From Balanoglossus misakiensis (Eukaryota > Animalia > Hemichordata), in the NCBI GenBank assembly GCA_040954595.2, contig CM082596.2:5530791-5594790 (forward strand): DNA of 64,000 nt. The letters are read 5' to 3'. A program made the translations under genes and the position numbers. Numbering within the stretch: the first letter of the stretch is position 1; every line of letters begins with the position of its first letter. The notes under the pieces are model-generated. The model was not told the DNA's origin. It made no database searches and saw only the letters and a program-made list of their open reading frames with translations. Positions 22,301-64,000 of this stretch are shown here, piece by piece.

Positions 22301-25300
22301 TGGACCAAACCATGGTGGTGAAAGGGTTAACAAAAATAAACCTACATAAAGTGACCACCTCAAAATACTGACATGATACATATTGATGACACATGCTCAG
22401 GAAGTCGAATAGGGTAAGACTGCTTAACTTACCGGACATGACACACTGTTTCCGGTCCACGTCAAGAACCATGCCCTCTGGGCACCCGCACCTGTAACCA
22501 TCTGGTGTGTTGTAACAGATGTGACTACACTCAATATTCCCGCCGTTCAATTCGCAGTCGCGCCTCTCTGAAAGGTCAAGCGTTGACATAAACACAGATT
22601 ATTCAGTTGATTCAACGAAACATGGACATCTTTCAGTGCAGTGATGTACAGTTAACAGCCAGTCATTGGTCAAAATACCCACCCTGAACATGCTGAACTC
22701 AAAATGTGACCAGCTATAATGGTTCTTAAACCCCAAAGAAACACACGTATTAATGAGCTTATTTTATGTGCCTTGACCATCGGTTGCTAGTTCCTCTTTC
22801 CCGCCTGTTACAAAACATATCTACATCACTGCAATGCCTCATCAGATACTTCAATAAATTTCAAACAAACTCACACTATTCCACCTGGTATTTCCTATCA
22901 AAACTCCCAAAACAAAATGTCCGTTCTTGAACAGCAGGAACACAAAGAACAGAGCACTTACCACAGTGTCCACCTTCATCAGAGCCATCGTCACAATCTT
23001 CATTGCCATTACACAGAAACTGTGGATCCAGACAGGTCGCTGACAGTCCACAAGTCCATCTAGGTGGCTTACAATCATCATCAATGGCTATATTATAATA
23101 AATAAAAACACCGTCATTTTTACTTCACAAAGGATACAATTTCAATTAGAAACTTAACAGAACACAGTACTGTAATTCAACCCACCTTCCTAAAGTCATG
23201 ATAATGATAATGAACATATAAAACTTGCACATTACACCAATATACTTAAGAGATACATGTACCACTTTACTGATAAAAACTGGTATTTATCACTCACAAT
23301 AATATCAAAAGTTAATTTGACATAAAAGTTTTAGTAAACAAGCTCTTATTTTCTTTATATTATTTCATACTTACGGCAATTGGCTTCATCAGAATCGTCA
23401 TCACAATCATTGTCCTCGTCGCAGCGCCATCGTTTGGCGATGCACTGACCGCTGTCACACGTAAACTGAGTCAGCGGGTCGCAGGTCTTGGGGGCATTGG
23501 CTGGAACCAGACGGCAAAAATGTGCAATTTTGTCAGGGGTCTTTCAAGAAGTGTTTAGGTTGAAACGTGCCCTTGTCTTGAAAAGTAATCATGCTGTACT
23601 CACAAAATTTGTGTCTCTGAAATTGTTCGCAATCATCACCACCCTCTTACAACAAAGAGTGAAGTTTATTTTTTCCGGGACTTTAAAGGGAATTTTCAGG
23701 AGTGGCTTAAAAATTCCACCACCTCCAAGTAGCATAGAAAGCCTTGCCACACTTATACATGACACAAACTATCAAAAATTCCAGCCTTTTTTTTGACACA
23801 AACTATCAAAAATTCCCGCCTTTTTTTTTTAAGTTGGGATGTTGGGCGTATTATTGGTGATCTCTACTTACGACAGCCTGATTCATCCGACTGATCACTG
23901 CAGTCGTCTTCTCCGTCACATCGCCACCTCTTCGGAATACAGTTGTCGTTTCGACACTGGAACTCATCTGCATGACAACCAGCAGGTGGGCGGGTACCTA
24001 AGTATGGATATACAACGGGTTAATTTGCTGGGAATTATGTTTAACCTTTTCGCCACCATGATTTGGTCCGAATTCTTATTGTTACAATCTGACAATATAC
24101 AAGGACGTCAAACACATTTGATTCTGACATTTTATCTTTGTTTGTTGCATTCTGTTTTAAATGAATAAACTATAAAATCCTATCAAAACATTCGAATTAC
24201 AATTTGCAAAAAATCCAAACTTACTGCAGTCTTCTTCATCAGAATTGTCTCCACAGTCATTGTCGCCATCGCAGACCCAGTCAGCTCTGATGCAGCGGTC
24301 AATAGTAGCACACTTGAACTCGGTGGCGTTTGCACAAGTATGTGATGGGCAATTAATTTCATCACTGTTATCGCCGCAGTCGTTGTCTGCACAGGACCAT
24401 TAAAATAAAAAACAAGTCAATTTGTGAATGATAGGGAAATGAGCCACACAAGTCACATTTCACAAGTCACAGCTATTTTTCCAAAGAACTGGAATTGCGC
24501 GAAATACTATTCTTTTCAAATGTTAAGAATACCGGTATAATCTACAACAGAAATTGTGAAGAACTGTTATTTTTTGATGAACTGTCATTTTTTTAATGAG
24601 AACTTGGTCTACTGTGAGCAGTTGAACAATCTGCCGTCCAGACAGTGAAAGGAGAGTTGAAATGTCAATTAAAATGGGTTGAAATGTTGAAAGGAATTCA
24701 GTGACACTACCATACCTGCATCACATCTCCAATTGACTGGAATACACCTTCCATTGGAACAGCCATACTGGGTCGGCTCACACGGTGGGTAAACTAAACA
24801 GGAATAAAAGGTACGCGAGAATTAAAAGTGGAATTCAAAATTAAGCCCAAGTATGAAGGGAAAGTCAGCTGATTTTGATCAGCTGTGGCTACAGGCAACA
24901 ATCAATGTCCTACACACTTGTTCACGCGACCAACATAAACATAAACACAAGTCTCCTTAATAGCTAATTTACAAATGTAGGTAGGTGTGTTTTGGGTTAA
25001 GCATTCGGGCTGCTCTCATCATTTCACATATCTAAAACATGGTACGACTGCTGAGAAGATTTATTTTCAAATAAAACTGCTATCTAAACTCTTTTCTTGA
25101 CTCTCAGAATTAACCTTCGGCAATTGGAACGTACCACAGTCGTCTGGTTCGTCAGAGTTGTCTCCGCAGTCATCATCCCGATCGCACTTCCAATTGATCG
25201 GAACGCACCTCCCGCTCGCACACTGGAACTGACTGTCACCACAGGTGTTTTCTGAAAAACCAAGGATGCATTTTGTGAAACGTATTTGCAATTTTGGCGG

Positions 25301-46300: not shown

Positions 46301-49300
46301 ATTTGAACTCGTCTGGGTTCAATTATGTGTCTGGCAAATTATGCGTTCAGAATTTTGAGAAGGCACGTGCCCCTAAGTTTTACAGACAAACACTCGCGCA
46401 TACATAACGAGAAGTCCAGGGTTTAAGATAGAACCAGTTTTCTGCAAAACTCACCAAACTTTCTGCATTTTATTTGAGCCCATCAGGGTGGAGACAATCT
46501 GATTAAAATACCGCACCCCATAAGTAAAAGATATGGACAGTCGCCGTACAATCTATATCAGATTTTAATCAGATTGGGTGAAGAAGATGGCTTCCCCTAG
46601 ACTACATTCTTTTAATCAAATGTTTCCCGGTGGCATATAGGCCACAATATTATTCCTCAAAAAGTTCTGTATTGCAAGCACACAGTCACTGACTACTAGA
46701 ACGCCAGGCACATATATGACACCGTGATAAATTACATGTATCGCGCTCACACATGACTGCCACACCCGTAACTCTGTGGACAGAACGAAGGAATGCGGTT
46801 GCCAGTATTTACAATCTTTCAAAACTTGTCAAATGTAGGGCAGGTACCGTGTATACAAACAAAGAGCACATGTGTGTGTACACTGTGCGATGTCAGCGCC
46901 TGTCTGGAGATCAGTCAATGAAATACTTCTCTCAGCTTATCTCATGATATCTCAGCTAATCTCCGATATCCCCTTTATCTCTAGTGTCACATGAATAGGC
47001 AGGATGCGATTTAGATAAGTGCCTTCAATATCTAGATTTCAAGGATATACAAGTGTCTTGCCTGATGGCAAAGTTCAAGGATATTTCCTCGAAGACCGGA
47101 TGGATTTCACCTATATATGTTTCAATTTGTCTTTTCGCATGTGTGTAAGTGTGTTAAGTATTATGTATGTATGTATGTATGTATGTATGTATGTATGTAT
47201 GTATGTATGTATGTATGTATGTATGTATGTATGTATGTATGTATGTATGTATGTATGTATCATGTATGTATGTATGTATGTATGTATGTATGTATGTATG
47301 TATGTATCATGTATATATTATTTATAAAATATACAACAATCAAACATTACATTGAGGTTTTTGAATGAAACAACGAGATGTTTGGCAACACAGATCCTCT
47401 GAACTCTTGAGCCATCACACATCCAACACTTTACAGGGACACATTTACTTAACCGAGTAAAATGCCATACAGGCTGGCTGATATGCATGACAACCAAAAA
47501 GTGTTGGCTTCGAGCCAAACACGTGCTCTTAACTGCAGCTAAGTTATGGCGGCATAGGCCGGTCATCTAAGCGCAGTAAGTTACCCACAGGATGCTACAA
47601 GTTGGATAAAATCCAAATATAAGTTTATAAGGCTGCATTCACAAACACCTCTGGAGGGGGGGGCAGGAGAATTGAGGGGGGGGATTTGAAAAAATTGAGG
47701 GTATGTAAGGGGGGGGATTTGAAATAATTTAGGGACTGAAAGGGGGGGACTTGAAAACTTTGACGACTAAATATTTATTTTGAGTCCACAAAAATGCAGT
47801 TTCGCGCCCTTTATTTTACAAAATTTTCTAATGTGGGAGGGGGACACCCCCTCCCACACCCACCCCCTCCATTCATCAACACCTTTCAATCATTTACTGC
47901 TTTATCTAGTGTCCCAGGTCAGGGGACTTGCCCCCACCCCTTGATAACTTTGAGCGGCGACGGTTTAATTTGTCCTCCCCAACATACCGGTAGTTGAGTT
48001 AATTTGCTTTTGCTGGGTTCATTAAAATGCAGCTTTGAGCTCTGTATTTTATAAAATTTTCTTACGTGGGAGGGGGACACCCCCTCCCAAACCCACCCCC
48101 TTCAATTCTCGGTTTACAATGTCTCCCAACACAGAATACAAATACTTAAACAATAAAAACAATGTTCAGTTTTAATACCCACTGATGAGGGGAAACATCA
48201 GTTTCAAATTCTTTTCATGGGAACGCTGTTTTTCTTTTTTACAAGATAGATGTGTTTTGCTCTGTGAAAGAAAATGGGGGGGGGGATTTCAAAATTTTGG
48301 CAGTACGGAAGGGGGGGATTTGAAAATATTTCGGGTTGTGTGGGGGGGCATGTGAAAATTAGCGGTAAAAAAAATTGAATTCTCCCGCCCCCCCCTCCAG
48401 AGGTGTTTGTGAATGCAGCCTAACCAAAACACATATGTTTTCAAACACAAAGTTTACTAAGTAACAGGCCTGCAGTCTTGTTACAATGTAGCTTTACCAA
48501 TAAAGTAATGGCCATTAAATTGCTTCAAAATATAATATTTTGGAAACTATTGCAATATGCACTCAATTAAATTCTACTTTGATACAATGTATCTTAAAGA
48601 CCTGATCAGTTTCACTTCAATAAACTCAAAATAAACAGTGAAAAATACACACAGCGAGAGACTGGTGTTTTATTTTTGCCAAGGGGGTAAACTGTCTGAC
48701 ATCAATGTTGGCACTGCGTGGTTTATGAAAGTGCTTCTACCTACATCGAAGTGGCTTACAATGGCCCCATCACCCACGATCACCACTAAAAAGACTTCTG
48801 GTCAATTTGCACACTTTTGTAAGCTCTTTGTCATACTACAAAGCTGAAACTGGTTTATACCCTGTACGTTATATAATAACCTTATTACCTAACCGCTGGT
48901 AATAATGCAGTTTTTCAGAAGTTCACTGCCTCCCTATTAACTATGTTGTTAATCCCATTTCTGGAAAAACATTCTGGGGCTATTATCAGCATATGAATAA
49001 TTAGTAGATTCTGTTCAATTAATTAACAAAAAAAAAGCCAAACACATTCGTTGACATTTCTGATGCAATAGGACAAATGCACCGAGGTGATATACCAATT
49101 CTCAGTAACCTCTAGAAGAACACCCCTATCTTAAGTTAAACTTTATTCTATTCTGTCACCTGACTGGATCAACATGTACTGGAAGGGGGGGGGGGACAGG
49201 GGTCAAATCAAGGTCAACATCAGGTTTTATACCAGCTTCAGACACTGCAATGCTCCAATGTATTCATGATTTCATTGTCCACAAAATGCACTGAATAAAC

Positions 49301-51440: not shown

Positions 51441-52652
51441 TTGTCCTGATTTGTGTGATATTGGAGATGGTCGCTGTGAGTAGAAAAAGCCAATGTTTTG
51501 CTCTGAGTAAAAACGTAAACACTGACGATTAGAAATCACTCACTATAAATACATAATAGAGTACGTACGTACGTCATGCGTCACGAGTACCGGGTAATTA
51601 ATCATTAGTCGGATATCTTGAAACTGCGGGGCAGGTTTTTATGAATGACGCACAAGCCCATGTATATGAAAACCGCGCCAAAGTGATTTACGAACAGGTA
51701 GCCGCATGTAACAGACGTGTCTGTACGTTTATTACTCCAGAAGTTAACTTGTGTTCGATGTCGTTTATATCTCGATATTTCCAATGTACATTGATGAGGG
51801 GGATGCGCCCACTTATAGGGAATAATTATACCTGATGAATATTTAATATGATAACACACATTCTTGTTGCGTACACAGTTCATGCATTATATCTCCCACG
51901 TTAGGTTAAAAGTTAACCGCGTCATAATTACATTTTAAATTCTGGACAGTTCTGAATGTTTATTCAACTTCAAAACGCAAATTGTCGATACATCCGGTGT
52001 AGATTCTTCGAACAAATAGTGGGCATAAATTTAATACCTGTAAGGTATGATATAAAGTTGGTGTGTCACCCTTTAATTAAGATGCTTTTAATCTATAAGA
52101 CTTGCAAGAACTTGAAAAAGTCTTAACTGTCCTACTTATTCGTGAACAGATTAATTGGTGAATATCAATTGTAAAGCGATTGGGACTCAGTTCTGACATG
52201 ACGTACGCACCGCGGACGGACGGTATAAAGGTACATGGTAAGGTGCCGGAAGTTATGTCGCCACCAACGGCGGGTATGACAAAAGTTGATGACGTTTGTT
52301 TTTTGTCGGTCCAGACCACTATGCATACAGTGTGTGGCTACGCTACCACGTCAGCTTTATTACAACAATAAACAAGGTTTTGATAAACAGAGTTTGAAAA
52401 AAAATCATCTTAAGACTTTTGCCTAAAAGCATGGCTTAAAAAAACTACTTGAGGTAAAATTCCTCCGAAAAAGCATTAGGTCTACAAACCATGCAAACTA
52501 ATACCCATGGAAAACTTTTTATTTTTTAACAAAACACAATACTGCTAAAGGAAGACCATGATTATAATCCGTTCTGTAAGCCTCTGAAGTTTGTCCAAAA
52601 CAAACAGTTGTACTTTTCATAGAGCCGTGGGTGGTACTGAATGTAGTTTAGT

Positions 52653-54138
52653 TTATGGTTTTGATTTTTTCTTTTTCATTTCTGCAATCAGTTTTGCATT
52701 TTCTGACAGACTTTTGGCATGTGCTGCTAACGATGCAGTCCTCTGTTCTGTGTCCTGAAGCTTATCACCTCTTTCAACTGTACTCTATCGAAAAGAAAAA
52801 AAAAACAGTAATAAAGTTACACGGTGAATAAGGGTACATTGGTTTATGAATCCTTTTGCAGACTTTTATGTGAAAGCTCAGACACACAATAACCTCTAAA
52901 GCTCTGAGGTCATTCAGTGACCCCAATTCTTACATTCAATCAATGAAAAACAATGCATCAACACTGAATGTCGCATGACTAACATGACAAGCATGTGATC
53001 CCGAATAAAAATGTGCAAGTCACAATAACTTTTCTTATCTGTGATTGATACTAGGCAATAGTTAATTCACCAACGTATCTGTTGTTTGGATCTCACTTCA
53101 TACAAAGAGTTCACTCTTGCACAGCTTAAAGACAGCACTGCACTTGGAATGTCACTGAAACATGCAAAGTGACATAAACCTATGAAAAATTGAAACTTCA
53201 TTTGTGATAAAAAATATGGTATTTTTTACTCACTTTATAAGCTGCTCTTGTCGCATCAGCTGTGGAAAGTGTTTTGGTTTCATCTTGACTGGAGTGACTT
53301 GATCCATCATCTTTATATCGCCCTGAAAAAAGGATAGAGTTACAATAATTTCAGCTGTCAAACCATTTTGGACATTCCTATTTGTGCTGGGCCCCCGTAT
53401 GCTCACTGAAAAATAGTTTTATGTAGTCCCTGACAAAAAAAATGGACATTGACATTTGACTGCTGGATTCTGTGGGGCAAAATGACCACCAGCACATTGG
53501 GACGGCAATATGTGGGCTTGTCTTTTTGAAACAAAAACACCCAGTAATAGCCTTTAAAATGTCCTTGATAACCAGTTGCTGGTATATTGTCACAATTACT
53601 TTCATGTAAACTGCACGCATAATTTCCACAGGAAGATGATTCAAAGCCTAAACATAGAAAATTTAGTTTCACACAGCGATTATATTTCACCAACACGTAA
53701 TGGTAAATTTGATTAAGTTTCATATGTGACATTTTCAGTATCATTGTATTGAACAGGAACACTGGAATATTTCATCTTAGCAGAAGTATCCCCCCCCCCC
53801 CCCCCCCGCATGAACTGATATGATATAGGGGTGTTACCTTTGCCTCTTTTCTTATCCATGAGTTTCTGTTTGAGTTTCTTCAACGGAGACTTTTTGTGTT
53901 TCTTTTTCACACTTTCAGAAGTTTCTTCCGTCGTGCTGCTGTCGGTATCCAAGAGAGGCGTCTTTTCTGTGGACTTTGACTTGTTTGTAGTACTTCCGTA
54001 TTTGCGCGCACTTCGCGCCGGCTGGGTTACCTGGACAGGTGGTGGTGTCGCCTCGTGTTTTGGGACCCCGGCCCCGGCCCCTTCCCCAAGTTCGTCTTGT
54101 TGACTCGAAGCCCGAAAACAGTCGGCACAGTTCCCCAT
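52653..54138 (-). CDS. Uncharacterised 173-aa protein: N-terminal myristoylation/palmitoylation motif, dileucine signal, C-terminal tomosyn/amisyn-like R-SNARE motif without TM
   Basis: Exons 53838-54138, 53234-53322 and 52653-52784 join in frame through canonical GT-AG sites. Translation: MGNCADCFRASS...STEKTPLLDTD...KKKHKKSPLKKLKQKLMDKKRGKGRYKDDGSSHSSQDETKTLSTADATRAAYKSTVERGDKLQDTEQRTASLAAHAKSLSENAKLIAEMKKKKSKP*. AATAAA on the minus strand at about 52518 and 52356. Confidence 0.8.
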
Positions 54139-55944
54139 CGAAATAACATCCAGGCGCTCACCGAGTTAAGAGTTACCGAACTTCACATTAGTGTTCGGCA
54201 CATGCAAATGAAATCCTGGAGTGTATTCCTGTAGCATTTTGCAAGTTGATCAGTGCTGTCCCCCGCGACGCAACAGGTTCGCCATAGATTCGCGCCACTT
54301 TCCGGGAAAATTTATAGTCAACTTCGAAGGACAAAAAGACCAGACTAGAACAGGGCTTCCATTACAGTACTAGTAAGATCTTACCACAAATTATCCAAAA
54401 GTTGTTTTGAGGGTATGACCTACTTCCAGCTGTACAATGTAAACTGTCCTGTCACCAGTCACTTTCCTTCGGCCATAACCTCGCTCTGATTGGCTAACGA
54501 TGTCGTAATAGAACCTCTAGCTTACTCGAATTATATTTGAGGATCTTCAACCCGGCCCATTTTCACACCAAGGTTCTTACCAAAATCGAAGTTCTTACTT
54601 TTTACAGCCTTAAAAGTCAAAAATACTCGGGGTTCCAGCTTGCAAAGTCATAGCAACCACAAAAATCACCACCTGGTATCATTAGCCAGAAGCAAAGTGG
54701 AAGAATATATCTCAGAAATAGAGCACAAAATTTGAAATCATGGGAGTATATGATTCAAAAGCACCTTTATTTGCTTTCAATTCATCACAATCTGACATGA
54801 AGTTTGAACGAAGGGGAGAGAGGAAATGTTCGTGACTGCTATGTTGTAGTATCTGAGAGGTGATAGGGGTGCTGTCAACCTTTAAATACTCGACCACACC
54901 ATTTTGTAATATAGTAATTCAGAAACACAAGTCTGTATCTTCTGTACAAAAACTTGTTCGATTACATCTATTCAACGGGTATCAGATCAAAAAATATGCA
55001 CTACCCCTACACCCCGAATCACTGGCATATCAACACAGAACAAATGGCATTGTGATTAGCTGGAGAATAAAAATACAAAGGAGAAATGACTCCTGTCTAA
55101 ACTGCACCTGTTTATAGTTCAGACCCAATGTTCATTTTCACAAATCGGCTGAGTGACATTGCCAGTATTGCAGAGTGCAATTGTGTCTTTCAACCCAAAC
55201 AATATATATACACAAAAAAACAACAACAGTATTACAACAATGGTAAAAATAAACAGTACGAGAATAAACTCAAACCAAAACACTTATGAAGTATGAAATT
55301 AATATAATATAAACAATGGGACTAAAAGATATTTGCACTACAAGTCATCAGTTTTTTCCCCACTGCCCTTTGTGAATTATTAAAATAGGGCTTTGAAGCC
55401 ACACCAGTCGCCTGTAAAAATCTGGCCATAAATAGATGCAAAAAGCCTATAGCTCACTCATTGATTTTCCCATAAGTGGCCACACATCAATGCACACAAA
55501 AAGCTAAGCCATTACTTTAGAACCCGCTCCTTTCTTACCATAAATGGGCATTATGTAAATTAAACGTGACTTGTACATCTTTGACCAAATATGGTCGCAA
55601 AAGGGGCCACACAAAGTGCATTTTATGTTACTGAGCTGTACTGTGAGAGAGATGCATCTAATAATTTACTGATCGTGTGTGACTGAGTAAACAGACTATT
55701 GGGGGAAAAAAGAAAATCTGTGGGGACTATAATATTAATGAGAAGTGCTGAAGAAAACGGGGCCAAGCCGCAGAAATTCACTGGTATATATATATCACAA
55801 CGTCTACATAAAAATGAAAGAAGTTATTGCAAAACATTTTCACTCCGAAGGAGCTCATAATTATGAAATTCACTGGAAAATAGTGATCACCTATTATAAG
55901 TAGTGTTCATACAAACTTTCCTTAAATTACTCGACTTTAGGACT

Positions 55945-58900
55945 TTACGATGAAGGGTTGGGAACTCGCAGGGGAAGCCGAGATCTATTTGGTGTGGGTA
56001 TTTTGGTGGCCTGCAACACTTTGCCATGGAGACCAATGATGCCTTTGTCACTGCATACAGACTCAGTGTCTGAGTTTTCCTTCTCGTGGTCTGATGATGA
56101 ATCAATTTCTTCAGGTTCGGGTAATGGTAACGTCGGTGGCTCTGGCTGCTGCTGCAAAAAATAAAACAAATGAAGAATACACTATTAGTAATCTCTCTCA
56201 AAATTATAATAACAAATAAAACTTATAATCAGTGTGCCTTCTCAGCCCATATGACGTGCACTGACTCAACAAACTCACTGGTGACTCAAGAAAATTATCC
56301 ACACTACATGCAAAGGTATAGGGCTGACTGAGAGAAATTTCTAAAAATCCTCAAATGGACGCAAAGCTCTTACACTGCTAATAATGAATTTTGAGGTGCT
56401 GCCAATGACATCGGACAAACACACAACAGCACGGGCACGACGTAACCACTTACCTGAGTACGGTCCTCTGTATCCGCGTCATCTTCAAACGGTATCCGAT
56501 ACGTTTCCATGAAATTGGCGATCAGCAGGTCGTGGGGTTCGGTTCTCTTCAAGTCTTTGGGATAGCGGAACTGCCGTCTCACAGGTGTGTTGCCTGTGGT
56601 CCAATCAAAGAACCAGGGTACATGTGAAAATTTTAGACTAAATCCAGGCGCTTTTCATGTTCAAATTAGGTGTCCTTATTATGACACATGTAAAACATGG
56701 CCACCCAAGTGAAAATTTGTGATTGGCTCGATCTCACCATCAAATCACCCCATGTCAATCATTTTACATACACCTGGCCATTGCCAAGTCATGGATGACC
56801 CATTGTGTCAGCATTGATCGTAAATCCATATTTACCTGTTGGGACATCGACTTTCAGGTCGTCCTGCAAGAACTTGTGTACATCGGTCACTCTTCTCTCA
56901 AGCTGACCCTTCATGAACTCCGACCACAGCTTCACGCCCGACGACTGATTGTTTATCGAGTCTGTTACCTCCGTTGTCTTGCCAACCATCCTCTCCTTCA
57001 TCGCATCGCCCGCTGTCTCCTGTGCCTTTGTCAGAGCCACTGTGGTTTGTGAAATATCCTGCAATGCACAGAAGACAATGATTACACTTCTAACACTACA
57101 AATTTGAACCCTGTCACCCCCATTTCCCTGTATAGAGGTCCAACTTTACCATAGAAAACAATGGATTTGGACCGAACCATGGTGATGAAAGAGTAAAGTG
57201 TAACCCTGAAATATAACATTACACAGCAGAATTTGCCCGCAAGGAGGATCTGAATAGATGTCTGGACACAACCCTCTATTGCATGCAACAACTAGAACTA
57301 AGATAATTTCAATAAGAGATTTTGCATTCATTCACTGACCTTAATTCCTTGTGTCTGCAATTCCACGTGTGTTACAACATTGTCTTTCATTTCTTGGCAT
57401 TTGGCAGAGACAGAGGCTATCACACTGATATTCTGTTGAAAAGCGAACAATCCAAAACACAGTTTTAAAATGATATAGTCACTTCCAATTCTTCAATATC
57501 CATTTAGTTGAGTTGATTTAGTTGAGTGACTGTCATTATTCAGGGAAAACAGGTGTAAACAAGTACTATTGAGAGTTTCTATCTCAGACATACCTCTCCG
57601 GCTTCATCACTGGATTGAATGGAAAACTCAGCCAACGACCTGGTATGCTTCGACGAGAACTCACTGGTTGTTGAAAGGACTGCGTCTGCATGTCTATATA
57701 ACAAAATATAAAATACATTACTACAGTACACTTCCCTCTGTTCAAAATTACATGTACAGTCTTTGTTTGCCTGATACATGTGTTGGAACAAGTATCTGAC
57801 TCCCTTAATTATTAACGGACACCAAGGACACTACAAAATCCAATGGAAAATATGCTCTGGAGAAGTGCTAATGGTCGCAATAGTTGAACACTATTCCTCT
57901 GATCCAATATTCACTACCATGCCAGACTGTATGTATGTACACAGATCGATAGATACTTACTGAACTGTGCTATCTGTCATGGTGGACAGACACTCCTCAA
58001 CATCATTCATTGCACTGGTATTCTGAAATATATAAAAATCGGGTGCTTATCAGATTGTTTCCAGTCTGATACAGTGTTTGCTTTTATTAATTTCAAAGTC
58101 AAAATTGTCAAACACTGACTGAAGAGTCCTTTTGGATAGGGCTCGGAATAGAGGGGTGAATGGGGAGTAACTGACCTCGGTGTGTTGCAACTCTGACCTC
58201 TCATGGCTTTCCTCCATCATGCTCTTCAGCGCGGCCAACTGGTTTGCCAAAGCGTCCACAACTGACATGGTTTGCTGTGTGTGAATATAGAATGAAATAA
58301 AAAACACTGATATACAGAACTCTAGTAGGAAAAGTGCTACAAGACGACACTGGAATCACTGGTGAGATTTCTTCTGACCTTGAGTTTTGAGCAGGTGAGA
58401 GTTCGGGGAAAAAACTCACCTTCTGAAATTGTCTTTTCTCCTCCACTTGCTGGTTGCATTTCCGATGGTAACCCTGGGCGATGGATTTGCCCTTCTCTTC
58501 GTGGGATCTCAGCTCGTCCTTCAGAGTCTGCAGCTGTTGGTGGCTTTGTTGTTGGTGCTTTTCTGTGTGTTCCACCCAGGCCAACAACTGGACAATCACA
58601 GCAACGGGTGAATAGAGGTGAAGAAAGCATACAATCAGTAAACCTAAGAGTTATATTTGGCAAACAAACATCATGTGATATACCGGTATGCCACACTGGA
58701 AACACATCAGAAGAATGGCCCAAAGTCAAACCTGTCTATAGTGGCCAGTCAAGGGACTTTCCTAAATTGGCCGTATAGACAGGTCAATTTGTACATGTAA
58801 ATTGCACAGGTACTATATAGAGGTGGCCACTAACACAGGTTTGGCTGTACTTAGTTTTGCTTACCTTTTGTTGACACTGGTATTTTTCCGCCTGTATCTT

Positions 58901-61900
58901 TCTGGACAAGCCACTGAGTGTCTGCATGACTGAGACCATCTGTGTAGTTACGCTGCATAGAAAACCCTGCAGTGTCTGGCATGCGTTACCCTGGTGGGAG
59001 AGGAAATGACACACGTCAGACTGACCAAAGAAATTCTGCAATTCCTCACCTCGAACTGAGTACATGTAAACCTTTTCTATAATTGTTTCTTGATAGAATC
59101 CACACTGACACCAAAGGTAATATTATCACTTGAATTATGACAGAAATTCGGAAATCTCACTGAGACAATATCAAAAACAAAACCTACGTCTTCAGGGTGC
59201 ATGTCAGATTCATTGCCTTGCAGACGCTGGCACTGGTCTAGGATGGTGTTACTCATCGTTGCTACGTCTACGCCGATTGCAGATACCGAGCTGCTCATCT
59301 CATTGAAAAACTTGTCTGTGAAACATCGCAAAGAAAATGGTCAGTCTTTATAGGAAAAAATGTTGACAAACTATTCATTTTTTGGACTGCATTTGTTTTG
59401 GTTGAATAAAACACAAATCAAAATTTTGCTATACGTATCAACTCCATTTGACTGCCAGACACTTCAATAAGACAAAGAGAAAGAACGCAAGCCAACGATG
59501 TAAGAGACAGACAAGGGAGTGTTGCAGATCCTGCATACCCACAGATATAACCATCTCACCTAGCCCATTTTGGAGACCGGCGAATTGCTGCACTTGTTTC
59601 TCGCAGTTCTTGGACGTGGTCTGCTGCATCTTGGCCAGACTTCCACTCATGCTCTGTTTGAATCGCTCCTGCTCGGACATGTTGTGGTGCTCCACGGCCC
59701 GCTTCCTGTCCAGTTTGTCGTGGACGCCGGTCAGGTCGGTGATACCGTCTTCTGTCGTTGACAACAACTGTAGGGTGGGGGGGGGGGGGGAGATTTTAAA
59801 GTTATGTATATTCAATACATATATATGGACAGAACACATGAACATTCCTATCACTTGATTTTTGGTCAATACCACAAAACAGTGTTACGGGTAGTTATTT
59901 TTTCACCAATGGGTACTGATCAGACACAGTCACACAGCAGAAAAAACTCACCTCCTCTGCCTGTTTGTAGAGATGCTCCTCTGTGTCAACCCGCACACAG
60001 ACCAAGTGCTGACTCTGGTCTCGCTCAATTACCACTTCTTTCAGATCCTAAAAATCATGGCACAAATTTTAGTTCAGAAGAAACGGCAAGGGTCTGTTCA
60101 ATGAATCTCATGCCTACATGCAGCAATCCGTTGATGAAATATCAAGTCACCATCAGACATACTGAAATCAAACGCTCCATTAAGATTCATTGCTAGATTG
60201 TGTTTCTCAAAATAGTCCTTGTAATGATGTGCATGCATAGCAGAAGAGGGCTCCTACTTTACCTGTTTTGTTTGGTGCAGTTTTGCTGAGGTGTCCTCCA
60301 GGTGAATTTCAGTTGTCGCAAGCTTCTCCGAGGTCTGTTCCAGTTCATTCTTTGTGTCTTGAAACAGGTCCATCATCTGCGATGGGATTAGGTGAGAAAA
60401 CAATCTTTATCAAAGATGTTAAGAACCAAGTTTTTGTGTGTTCACTATCAGTGTTCCGAGGAATACATACAGCTTCTAGCTACCCCAGGTAGGTCTGGAA
60501 GGCCACCATGAATATGGACGTGGTTCTACATTAACACTTCAAATACCTTTTTCATCTCTTCCTCCATGTTAGTAATCTTATTCTTCAGTTCTTCCACAGA
60601 ATGCGACTGAGATGAGATCTGGTTCTCCATTGTGCTGTAAACAACAAAATGAGCTGTAAGATATCGGTATAAAATCAACAGTGACAATACCATCATACCA
60701 AAACCACCAGCACTGTCACCACTTCACACCTGACCCCTTGCAAATGCCCAAGTGCAAAGAAACTGCTGGAAAATCTCACCTGTAGGTTTCCTTGGAGACG
60801 TAAAAACCGTCTTTCTCTCGCGCTGCATGCAAATCCTGCCGTAGTCTTTCAATTTCCTCTGTATATTGCTGCAAAAAAAAAACAGTTTTCGTTCACATTT
60901 AGTTTAATACATGCAAATTTTTTTTTCAATTCTGGAAAGCTACCATCAGTTCACAAAATCAAATGCACAGGACGCAGACTATAGTTTCAATGACTTTAAT
61001 CCACGTCTGACTCACCTTGATCAACGCTCTCTTTGTCATCTTCTGATTCACCTCGGGTCTGTTTGTGATGTTCCTGGCTCTGTGTGCATAGTCCAGGGTG
61101 CTCAGACTCTCCTGCAACACAACCACACAGCGACTGAAATCTTAGTCGTCATCACAAGGAGCAGTTGTGACTTGCCCTCTTGCTCTTCACTGAACAATCC
61201 ACATAATAGTCAATTGCTCTTTACAGACATGCACGAAAGTTTCAGGCAATGAAGCGAACACTAGTTCATAGTCAAAACTAAGTTGGATCTCATCTAGATC
61301 ACATAAGGAAAATTTAATTTTACAAACCTCTACATTGCAATGCGCTGGCGAAACTGTCGCAATGATGGAAGTCTTTGTACTGCCACCTAGGGAGTCCTGT
61401 AGAAGCCTGGTCAACTTACTCTCTCTGTGAAAAGAGCAATAACCAGAGCGAGCTGATGTGAAGTGGTATTACAAGGGTGTCAGTGACTGACAGATTTTCG
61501 AGTCAACTCCCCTTCAAACTGTCACACATAGGTGCTCTGAATGAGAAAGACCTCTGGCACTGTATGTTGTCCTAGTAGCAAATTTCTAGAGTCACACAGA
61601 GTTGCAAATATAGCTGGACACTGTGCCAAGATATGTTGGTAAGGTGTAGAATTCCAGAATTGTGGAGACATTTTGTTCCCCCCCCCCCTCACAAAGCAGT
61701 AGCAGTGCAGGGCATCAGATCTTACCTGTATGGTATATGGGGAGCATGCTCTGTCAGCGATGTGATGACCCGGCCGAGAGTCAGCAAACTTTGGTTGATG
61801 TTACCTAGGAAACCAAGAACAACAGAAAATTGTGGGCAATGCCGATTGATGCTAAAGCTAGGTCATCAATACCACTGGTATTGATCTCTGACAATGTGGC

Positions 61901-63899
61901 ACTAACAATCACACACACACATACTCACCAGCTTCTTTGGCTCTCCTGTCCACAGCCCCCGACTTGCCGATATTCTCGGACCCGGCCAGATCCACCAGGT
62001 ACAACTTGCCACATTTGACCATCTCCTCCCCGTCATTTGCCACCTCCTTGATGTGCACCAGTATTGTGAAGACAGCGTGCGATCGACTGTGAAAGGAAAG
62101 AGAACGTTGTTTTTACGCTGGTTTGCGACATAACTGATACATGACGTGCATGAGGGTACAAGACTGGTTAATGCCATAGACAGTGACTGCCTCTGGATGC
62201 AAATGAATGCCACAGACAGATTTCCTACCTGGAATGATCATTCATCTTGGTGGCAGCTGTCTGCCGTTTCTTCCAACCTGTTTCCAAGATATGGAACACT
62301 TCATTCTTGTCATGCACTGGCCTTTCCTCCAATCCAGATATCACAACAGAGCCCTGGAAACCGAAAAAATAACACCGATTTCAGTAAAACAACTTCCATG
62401 GCAAGTTATTTACAAAATATTGTTAGCACATGTTATATCTCAAAAATGAATCATGGCAAGGCGAGAAAGTTTTCACTTTGTCCGCTGGATAAAGAGAGAT
62501 AAAATATTTACCTTTTTAATAGTGTCTTCATACATACGCAGTTTACCGTCACCGTCACCCAGCAGATCAAACAGTTCCTCTTGGTAGATTTCAAGGAATG
62601 ACACGCGCACTGAAAACTCTACATTCATCACTTGCAGGGTTTCAAAGAGTTGATGCATGGACCTGGGAATTATACCAGCCAGTGGGTCCTGTGTGGGGGT
62701 TGGATCAGAGAAATTAGTGGTAGTGAAAACGACTTAGCTGTATGTCACAGATCACATATAGACCCTCCCCACTCTCTTACATGCCGGATTATTTTGTTTG
62801 ACTCACCTCATCCCATGAGATACTAGTATCCGGACTTCTCTCTCCTTCCATGGTGAAAGTTTTCCCGGTTCCGGTCTGTCCATAGCTGTTTTGCGATGGA
62901 ACACATAAACAATGGTTTAACCGAGATGAAAGTTGTGTGTGGTCGAACTTTGATCCACTCGTAGAATGACATAAACGGTGTCTTGTATCAAACAAAATGA
63001 AAAAAGAGCAGCGAGAGAGCGAGACTTTGTCCCTTTAAAGCCCTGGACAAAGTCTCTCTCTCGCTGCCTTTGTTGGCCAAACATTTGGTGCAGTCACGCA
63101 CTTAGAACGATTACAGAAAACTTACGCAAATATTGTACAGTTGTAACCCTGCAGTACTTCATCAACGATGGGTATGACCACAGACTTGTAGACATCAATT
63201 TGCTTGGCATGTGGCCCAAATACCTGCAAATATTGTTGTTATGAAAATTAGCCAAAAAGCGGTATTATATTCTGCAAATACTGAGGGAAGAACACTATGG
63301 CATACTGTGCTGTTTCAACCTGCTTTGACAGTTAAGTCTACAAAAAAAAATCTTACTTTGTCAAAACTAAAGGTTTTCTTGAAGGATTTTCCTGGTATAT
63401 CACATCCAACGCTGACTTGATTTTTCTTCTCATGAACAGATATTACAGACTGCTGTGACTTTTCTATGTCATTCAGTGGTCTGCAAAGGTAAATCAAATG
63501 TATTAGTTACATTTTCGCCACTTATAATATACTAGCCAGCAGTGTTTCATCCAGACAGGGCCCAGGCATTCACACCCTGTTGACAGTACCCCCTAGAAAT
63601 TTGTCAAAGGGGGACCCGAGTACCACTTGTGCTGTGGGACCCCCGTCCGTGTACTCAAGACGCGGTTGACCGTGTAAGCGTTTGTTTCTGATGAAATGAT
63701 CAATGAAGTGGACTTTACGAGAACATACTGAACCATAAAAACTAAATAACAAGTGACTTTTTGTTCGTGTTTATAATAATATGCCATCCCATCTCCCATT
63801 CCCAGATTTAAATACTTACCGACAACGAACGGCTACTTGAACGTTGGTTTCACGGGGTTTCTCCTTCGAGTTCTTCCCCGACCTATGAATAGACGTCAT
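55945..63899 (-). CDS. KIF11: Kinesin-5 (KIF11/Eg5/BimC family) mitotic motor, 25 exons, 1017 aa
   Basis: Exons: 63820-63899, 63357-63480, 63126-63223, 62807-62885, 62512-62688, 62229-62353, 61929-62086, 61726-61804, 61328-61424, 61016-61111, 60780-60868, 60547-60634, 60263-60376, 59952-60047, 59560-59767, 59188-59315, 58865-58990, 58420-58587, 58176-58274, 57961-58022, 57594-57693, 57340-57432, 56836-57058, 56454-56593, 55945-56151 (3054 nt). Motifs: [11 protein letters not shown]-loop GQTGTGKT, long L5 [53 protein letters not shown], neck [11 protein letters not shown], BimC box PTGNTPVRR. Confidence 0.95.
58723..58849. mobile_element. Second, inverted copy of the Tc1/mariner-type MITE in a KIF11 intron
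   Basis: agtcaaacctgtctatagtggccagtcaagggactttc...gtggccactaacacaggtttggctgta matches the reverse complement of 26829-26990. Confidence 0.75.
63008..63067. repeat. Near-perfect inverted repeat in KIF11 intron 3
   Basis: gcagcgagagagcgagactttgtcc / ggacaaagtctctctctcgctgc, 12-nt spacer. Confidence 0.85.
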
Positions 63900-64000
63900 G
63901 TCTGCTTCTTTGCAAAGTCTTAAAGATATTCTCTGTAGATTTTGCTCAATACAGGAGGCGAAAACCTGAGAAATCTCACGGTCAAATCGCTCTGCTCAAA

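Follow-up and report, generated by a model that had tools for sequence, protein, structure and literature searches.

The question raised by this locus is whether a small protein with a putative lipid anchor at its N-terminus and an R-SNARE-like helix at its C-terminus is encoded by a gene of its own and, if so, how such a protein would act on membrane fusion. The locus lies in a window, the whole stretch of 64,000 nucleotides of Balanoglossus misakiensis DNA that was analysed, for which an initial annotation had proposed a spliced open reading frame of 173 residues. This proposal was borne out by a gene model of three coding exons on the minus strand, joined across GT-AG introns of 515 and 449 nt with pyrimidine-rich acceptors (Table 1), and by tblastn searches of the raw window with three orthologous proteins, all of which matched exons 1 and 3 (E 1e-11 to 1e-26) and two of which matched exon 2 (E 0.007 and 0.088). 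The splicing itself is a prediction based on homology. When exon 1 is left unspliced the frame extends to 141 residues, and omission of exon 2 shifts the frame to give a product of 103 residues. A weak additional tblastn match at 23923-24027 (E=0.49) was disregarded. The annotated MGNCADC start, EKTPLL sequence, polybasic stretch, Arg135 and residues L,T,T,L,A,L,A,I at layers +1 to +8 were all present in the joined product.

Table 1. Features of the candidate gene and its neighbours, in coordinates of the window.
Feature	Position	Strand	Remarks
Coding exon 1	53838..54138	-	residues 1-100; GT donor, phase 1; 3/3 orthologues match from own residue 1
Coding exon 2	53234..53322	-	residues 101-130; AG/GT flanks, phase-0 end; SNARE layers -7 to -2; 2/3 orthologues match
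Coding exon 3	52653..52784	-	residues 131-173 and stop; layers -1 to +8 and basic tail; 61-78% identity to orthologues
N-terminal Gly2/Cys4/Cys7 motif, predicted lipidation site	54118..54138	-	M1, G2, N3, C4 and C7 invariant 4/4
ARK[YF]GST conserved motif	53989..54009	-	6/9 positions invariant
EKTPLL acidic dileucine-type motif, residues 58-63	53950..53967	-	EKTPL invariant; last residue L/L/I/M
Polybasic patch, KS.[LF]KK core	53845..53907	-	net charge +6 to +10 over 21 residues; 7/17 invariant
Predicted start of SNARE-like helix, layers -4 to -2	53234..53263	-	small residues T/A; from conservation and AlphaFold2
R-SNARE-like helix, layers -1 to +8	52686..52784	-	zero-layer Arg codon 52770-52772; PF00957 E=0.0077; 1URQ E=6.7e-4
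Lysine-rich C-terminal tail	52656..52676	-	without TM, without CAAX
First AATAAA past stop, candidate polyadenylation signal	52518..52523	-	from sequence
Second AATAAA past stop	52356-52361	-	from sequence
Kinesin gene, upstream	55942-64000	-	motor exons and Microtub_bind (PF13931) match near end; stop ~55945; AATAAA at 54771
Large LDL-receptor-family gene, downstream	about 250-33000	-	numerous exons for class A and class B repeats

A search with exon 1 identified one protein among 16 candidates, an uncharacterized 179-residue protein of Ptychodera flava (E=1.1e-18), and exon 3, scored against 1.84 billion representatives, yielded three proteins at E<=0.001. The orthologues are the P. flava protein, 63% identical to the window protein, and uncharacterized proteins of Glandiceps talaboti (LOC144450635, 193 residues, 44% identical) and Saccoglossus kowalevskii (LOC102806514, 170 residues, 47% identical), which represent three families of Enteropneusta. 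Scoring of 7,990 candidates with a family profile gave strong E-values for these three only, followed by five weak matches (E 0.94-4.7), in a search that relies on shared words and a short conserved part and with which distant relatives could be missed. None of 14 candidates was confirmed in a word-index search of exon 3 against longer proteins, nor was any of 110 pattern matches in metagenome contigs. By these searches the family is known from acorn worms only. All four members share Gly2/Cys4/Cys7, ARK[YF]GST, EKTPL[LIM], the polybasic patch and a C-terminal helix with an Arg layer but neither a transmembrane (TM) segment nor a CAAX box; a search for orthologues with the first and third of these and the helix had been suggested in the initial annotation. 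Invariant residues account for 5 of 8 positions in residues 1-8, 6 of 9 in the ARK[YF]GST region, 6 of 8 in the dileucine region and 7 of 17 in the polybasic patch, and for 2 of 33, 0 of 18 and 1 of 19 in the linkers between conserved motifs. The clustering of invariant residues of positions 1-110 in these four motif windows was equalled in 1 of 20000 shuffles.

The initial annotation had allowed that upstream exons might reveal the gene as the 3' portion of an ordinary gene for tomosyn or amisyn, and this was opposed by the stop, the spacing of the neighbouring gene and the start of the orthologues. An in-frame stop is present 10 codons 5' of the ATG. The nearest upstream gene on the same strand, with Pfam matches to Kinesin and Microtub_bind, ends 1803 nt away; from its motifs we take it to be a kinesin-5 (KIF11/Eg5-like) gene, and its position leaves no room for upstream WD40 or PH exons. 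All three orthologues begin at MGNC, so that the gene does not represent the 3' portion of tomosyn or amisyn. Consistent with this, no Pfam match to WD40 or PH regions was obtained in the four family proteins, exon 1 matched no Pfam family, and the AlphaFold2 model is of low confidence at the N-terminus with no strands of three or more residues that would indicate a PH fold. The orthologues are database gene models and the gene model in the window is sequence-based, which leaves some scope for a fragment or an artefact of gene prediction; set against the upstream stop, the adjacent kinesin gene, the MGNC start in three of three orthologues and motif-level conservation across three families, such an explanation is highly improbable. 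The LDL-receptor-family gene on the downstream side is presumably LRP1-like.

The C-terminal helix had been assigned to the R-SNARE type of tomosyn and amisyn. The zero-layer Arg is invariant in all four proteins, layers +1 to +8 read L,T,T,L,A/C,L,A,I/L with an atypical Thr at +2, and 14 of the 29 residues from layer 0 to +8 are invariant, as are 7 in the preceding 24. Synaptobrevin (PF00957) was the sole Pfam family matched, in three of the four members (E = 0.0077, 0.016 and 0.0008), with scores of 16.5 (exon 3 only), 15.4 and 19.6 bits and no match in the remaining member; every member was below the gathering cut-off of 26.4. A profile of the helix region, searched against 177,635 PDB sequences, had three matches in total at E<=10: tomosyn (1URQ, 6.7e-4), VAMP4 (0.62) and a zinc-finger protein (1.6). 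With a single sequence as query the tomosyn match had an E-value of only 0.008. In the ESM Atlas, Synaptobrevin-labelled clusters ranked first with values of 0.84-0.89, all under 0.9 and to be read as leads only. Matches in the PDB to designed repeat proteins, protein A, TIM barrels and PACSIN were attributed to repeat and composition effects, and a Foldseek comparison of the model with the PDB, which gave no match at E<=0.001, is uninformative for a lone helix. Five small R-SNARE-like proteins gave a profile-profile match (probability 95.6, 54 columns), which was set aside as circular because they had been chosen with the acorn-worm family's own profile.

Comparison layer by layer defines how far the likeness to tomosyn extends. 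Layers -5 to +8 are A,V,L,A,L,R,L,L,T,M,A,F,A,M in tomosyn and T,T,T,A,T,R,L,T,T,L,A,L,A,I in the window protein; layers -2, 0, +1, +3 and +7 are the same as in tomosyn in all four acorn-worm proteins and layer +5 in three. Layers -4, -3, -1 and +2, which are V, L, L and L in tomosyn, are T or A in the acorn-worm family, with Thr invariant at -1 and +2. A complete 16-layer SNARE motif is absent. Layers -7 to -5 are not conserved and each of the three orthologues carries a Pro between offsets -17 and -20, while AlphaFold2, run on the P. flava protein with a three-sequence alignment (pTM 0.25), produced one confident helix (residues 127-177) that begins at layer -4, the remainder being of low confidence; the Pro positions and the helix onset indicate that the motif covers about 13 of 16 layers. 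As a proxy for membership of the R.Reg class, to which tomosyn (STXBP5/STXBP5L) belongs, the match to tomosyn is stronger than that to VAMP4, but offsets -2 and -6 are hydrophobic as in VAMP4 (I, I) and not as in tomosyn (D, R). The Arg zero layer is also common to Synaptobrevin/VAMP proteins, from which the acorn-worm protein differs in its lack of a TM segment and in the weaker overall match. Judged by these comparisons, the helix is likely to have descended from tomosyn. The original assignment therefore stands as regards the closest solved relative and is to be modified as regards the shortened N-terminus and the Thr residues at -1 and +2.

The same data must be weighed for a different reading, in which the helix is a coiled coil whose partner is not a Q-SNARE acceptor but the protein itself, a tether or an adaptor, any resemblance to SNAREs is a relic or convergence, and the protein is a lipid-anchored adaptor. 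The Pfam scores below threshold, the modest tomosyn match by single sequence and the N-terminal motifs conserved as well as the helix would suit such a protein, as would invariant Thr in core positions where tomosyn, VAMP4 and most of the five weak relatives have large hydrophobic residues. Yet the invariant Arg with G-[DE]-K-L after it and the full +1 to +8 spacing agree specifically with R-SNAREs, and the only two non-trivial PDB matches at E<1 are both R-SNAREs. On balance a coiled coil without a SNARE partner is considered unlikely, if a serious contender.

The absence of a C-terminal anchor, claimed at the outset, was confirmed: the highest 19-residue Kyte-Doolittle mean in the window protein is 0.29 and no C-terminal Cys is present, and maximum hydropathy of 0.02-0.56 with no C-terminal Cys motif in all four members leaves neither a C-terminal TM segment nor a prenylation site. 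Features compatible with membrane attachment are located instead at the opposite end. Myristoylation together with palmitoylation had been proposed for the N-terminus. N-myristoylation involves Gly2 and usually a small residue at position 6, which is D, A, E and D in the four members. Gly2, Cys4 and Cys7 are invariant, in agreement with the proposal, and the myristoylation pattern is imperfect in three of four. S-acylation is the safer prediction, given the acidic residue 6 in three of four members in place of the usual small residue, and is favoured by the Cys cluster of the orthologues, which have three to five Cys within residues 4-12. The acidic dileucine motif, also claimed earlier, proved to be conserved and matches the consensus [D/E]XXXL[L/I] given in PMC9109462, with Met as the last residue in Saccoglossus. 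By chance a motif of this type is expected at 0.05-0.09 per shuffled sequence, yet it occupies the identical place in all four proteins. The ARK[YF]GST motif, conserved equally well, lies 8-11 residues N-terminal of it and is possibly a kinase site or a second sorting signal. No YxxPhi motif is present in the four proteins, and the polybasic patch was rejected as an amphipathic helix since 9-53% of shuffles equalled its hydrophobic moment. Taken from sequence, the dileucine motif suggests endosomal or lysosome-related membranes; the polybasic patch is compatible with the plasma membrane and could equally point there, myristoyl-electrostatic targeting to that membrane being described in PMC10940682.

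Starting from the gene structure, the conservation, the absence of TM, CAAX, WD40 and PH features and the likeness of the helix to the tomosyn motif, which the sequence analysis shows, the best explanation, to which we give about an even chance, is a conserved acorn-worm protein held by an N-terminal fatty-acid anchor on the cytosolic face of a membrane and acting as a non-fusogenic R-SNARE-like decoy. S-acylation of the Cys cluster, perhaps after N-myristoylation, would anchor the protein together with the polybasic patch, and AP adaptors would sort it via the dileucine motif. A disordered linker of about 110 residues could allow the helix to reach Q-SNAREs of the same membrane, where the shortened helix would, by prediction, take the R position in an acceptor of the syntaxin/SNAP-25 type. 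Because zippering could not draw the membranes together without a C-terminal anchor, fusion would be damped; owing to the absent layers -7 to -5 and the Thr residues in several core layers, this block would be weak and reversible. Targeting, which WD40 serves in tomosyn and PH in amisyn, would fall to the lipid anchor.

Several reports bear on this decoy. Tomosyn is described as lacking a membrane anchor and unable to drive fusion (PMC2639358, PMC8377282), and in Drosophila tomosyn the SNARE motif inhibits while the scaffold localises (PMC8612732). The lysine-rich tail that follows the motif counts in favour, since tomosyn is stated to need its lysine-rich/polybasic tail (PMC10965968). The membrane location of amisyn depends on its PH domain (bioRxiv 10.64898/2026.08.19.745707). 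Counted against the decoy are the variable results obtained with the SNARE domain on its own, which include enhanced sustained release (PMC3195084). The Pfam scores below cut-off, the lack of conservation at layers -7 to -5, the T/A core layers and the acidic residue 6 in three of four members likewise argue against it.

The protein resembles tomosyn in a TM-less C-terminal R-SNARE-like helix followed by a lysine-rich tail and differs from it in size and domains, tomosyn having WD40 propellers and >1000 residues, as well as in the predicted lipid anchor, the missing layers -7 to -5 and the Thr at -1 and +2. Amisyn (STXBP6) is likewise a small TM-less decoy with an N-terminal membrane-targeting module; its module is a PI(4,5)P2-binding PH domain whereas the acorn-worm N-terminus is of low complexity, a distinction drawn from description rather than sequence alignment. 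The acorn-worm protein probably functions like tomosyn or amisyn and belongs to neither. LAMTOR1 is comparable in targeting logic only, with N-terminal Gly and Cys residues and a dileucine motif; no sequence homology to it was found, and it has no SNARE motif. Its Gly2 myristoylation and lysosomal location are reported in PMC10940682. Ykt6 is an R-SNARE with a lipid anchor in place of a TM segment, but has a longin domain and, according to PMC1626469, prenylation and palmitoylation at the C-terminus beside the motif, at the end opposite to the anchor predicted here. The present protein is not the only instance of a tomosyn-like helix behind an exchanged module: the 237-residue metagenome protein P0004 combines ankyrin repeats with a C-terminal tomosyn-like R-SNARE helix (Synaptobrevin E=1.4e-9) and has no obvious TM segment, and a large TM-less R-SNARE without WD40 is described for Leishmania in PMC1626469.

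The shortened helix also admits a reading opposite in outcome, which arises from the finding in PMC9623535 that synaptobrevin-2 shortened at its N-terminus keeps the 1:1 acceptor stable and makes both assembly and liposome fusion faster. The acorn-worm protein would then be a natural 'delta-N' placeholder on the C-terminal half of a 1:1 syntaxin/SNAP-25 acceptor; the N-terminal half would stay accessible for nucleation by a true VAMP, after which the placeholder would be displaced, priming rather than clamping. Conservation and predicted helix confined to about layers -4 to +8, small residues in the N-terminal layers and Thr that weakens the core are in keeping with such a role. The helix runs four layers N-terminal of the zero layer, however, and may overcover the nucleation site, and we know of no natural precedent for a placeholder of this kind. 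Tomosyn-type helices are moreover inhibitory in vivo, as stated in PMC8377282 and PMC8612732. Priming by the helix is thus considered improbable. That acorn worms evolved a lipid-anchored truncated R-SNARE as a displaceable placeholder, keeping Q-SNAREs in a ready 1:1 acceptor state in a compartment set by the dileucine signal, is a speculative proposal with a small chance of being correct; if true, it would add a third design of animal R-SNARE regulator to WD40-tomosyn and PH-amisyn, and the first that primes and does not block.

Under the preferred decoy reading, a lipid anchor would stand in place of a folded targeting domain in a deuterostome lineage adjoining the chordates, and the protein is a natural system, pared to a minimum, in which to ask whether a tomosyn-type helix and a membrane anchor suffice for fusion control. 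Its missing N-terminal layers also bear directly on the choice between clamping and priming by an incomplete R-SNARE helix. The claim of an unrecognised architecture holds in the sense of a regulator of known kind with a new architecture: the full-text literature searched, which includes few subscription papers and was queried without gene identifiers, listed no paper on the acorn-worm proteins or on any TM-less R-SNARE with N-acylation. TRACEY distinguishes three R.Reg subclasses, and the family may already be included among them without a name.

Some further observations were made alongside. In the ESM Atlas, comparison of the whole P. flava protein with a cluster of vertebrate C3orf49 (PF28264) gave a score of 0.84. 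The end of C3orf49 presumably comprises a TM-less synaptobrevin-like stretch, and the protein may be an unrecognised vertebrate decoy R-SNARE; the literature search found no paper on C3orf49 with SNARE. Clusters of 82-112 residues in the same atlas, partly labelled Synaptobrevin, occur in arthropods ('RH19475p', 214 members) and plants and could be pieces of tomosyn or additional small R-SNAREs without a TM segment. Elsewhere in the window, an ATGT microsatellite of 45.5 copies and a 33-bp tandem repeat of 2.6 copies are located at 47139-47318 and 47675-47757.
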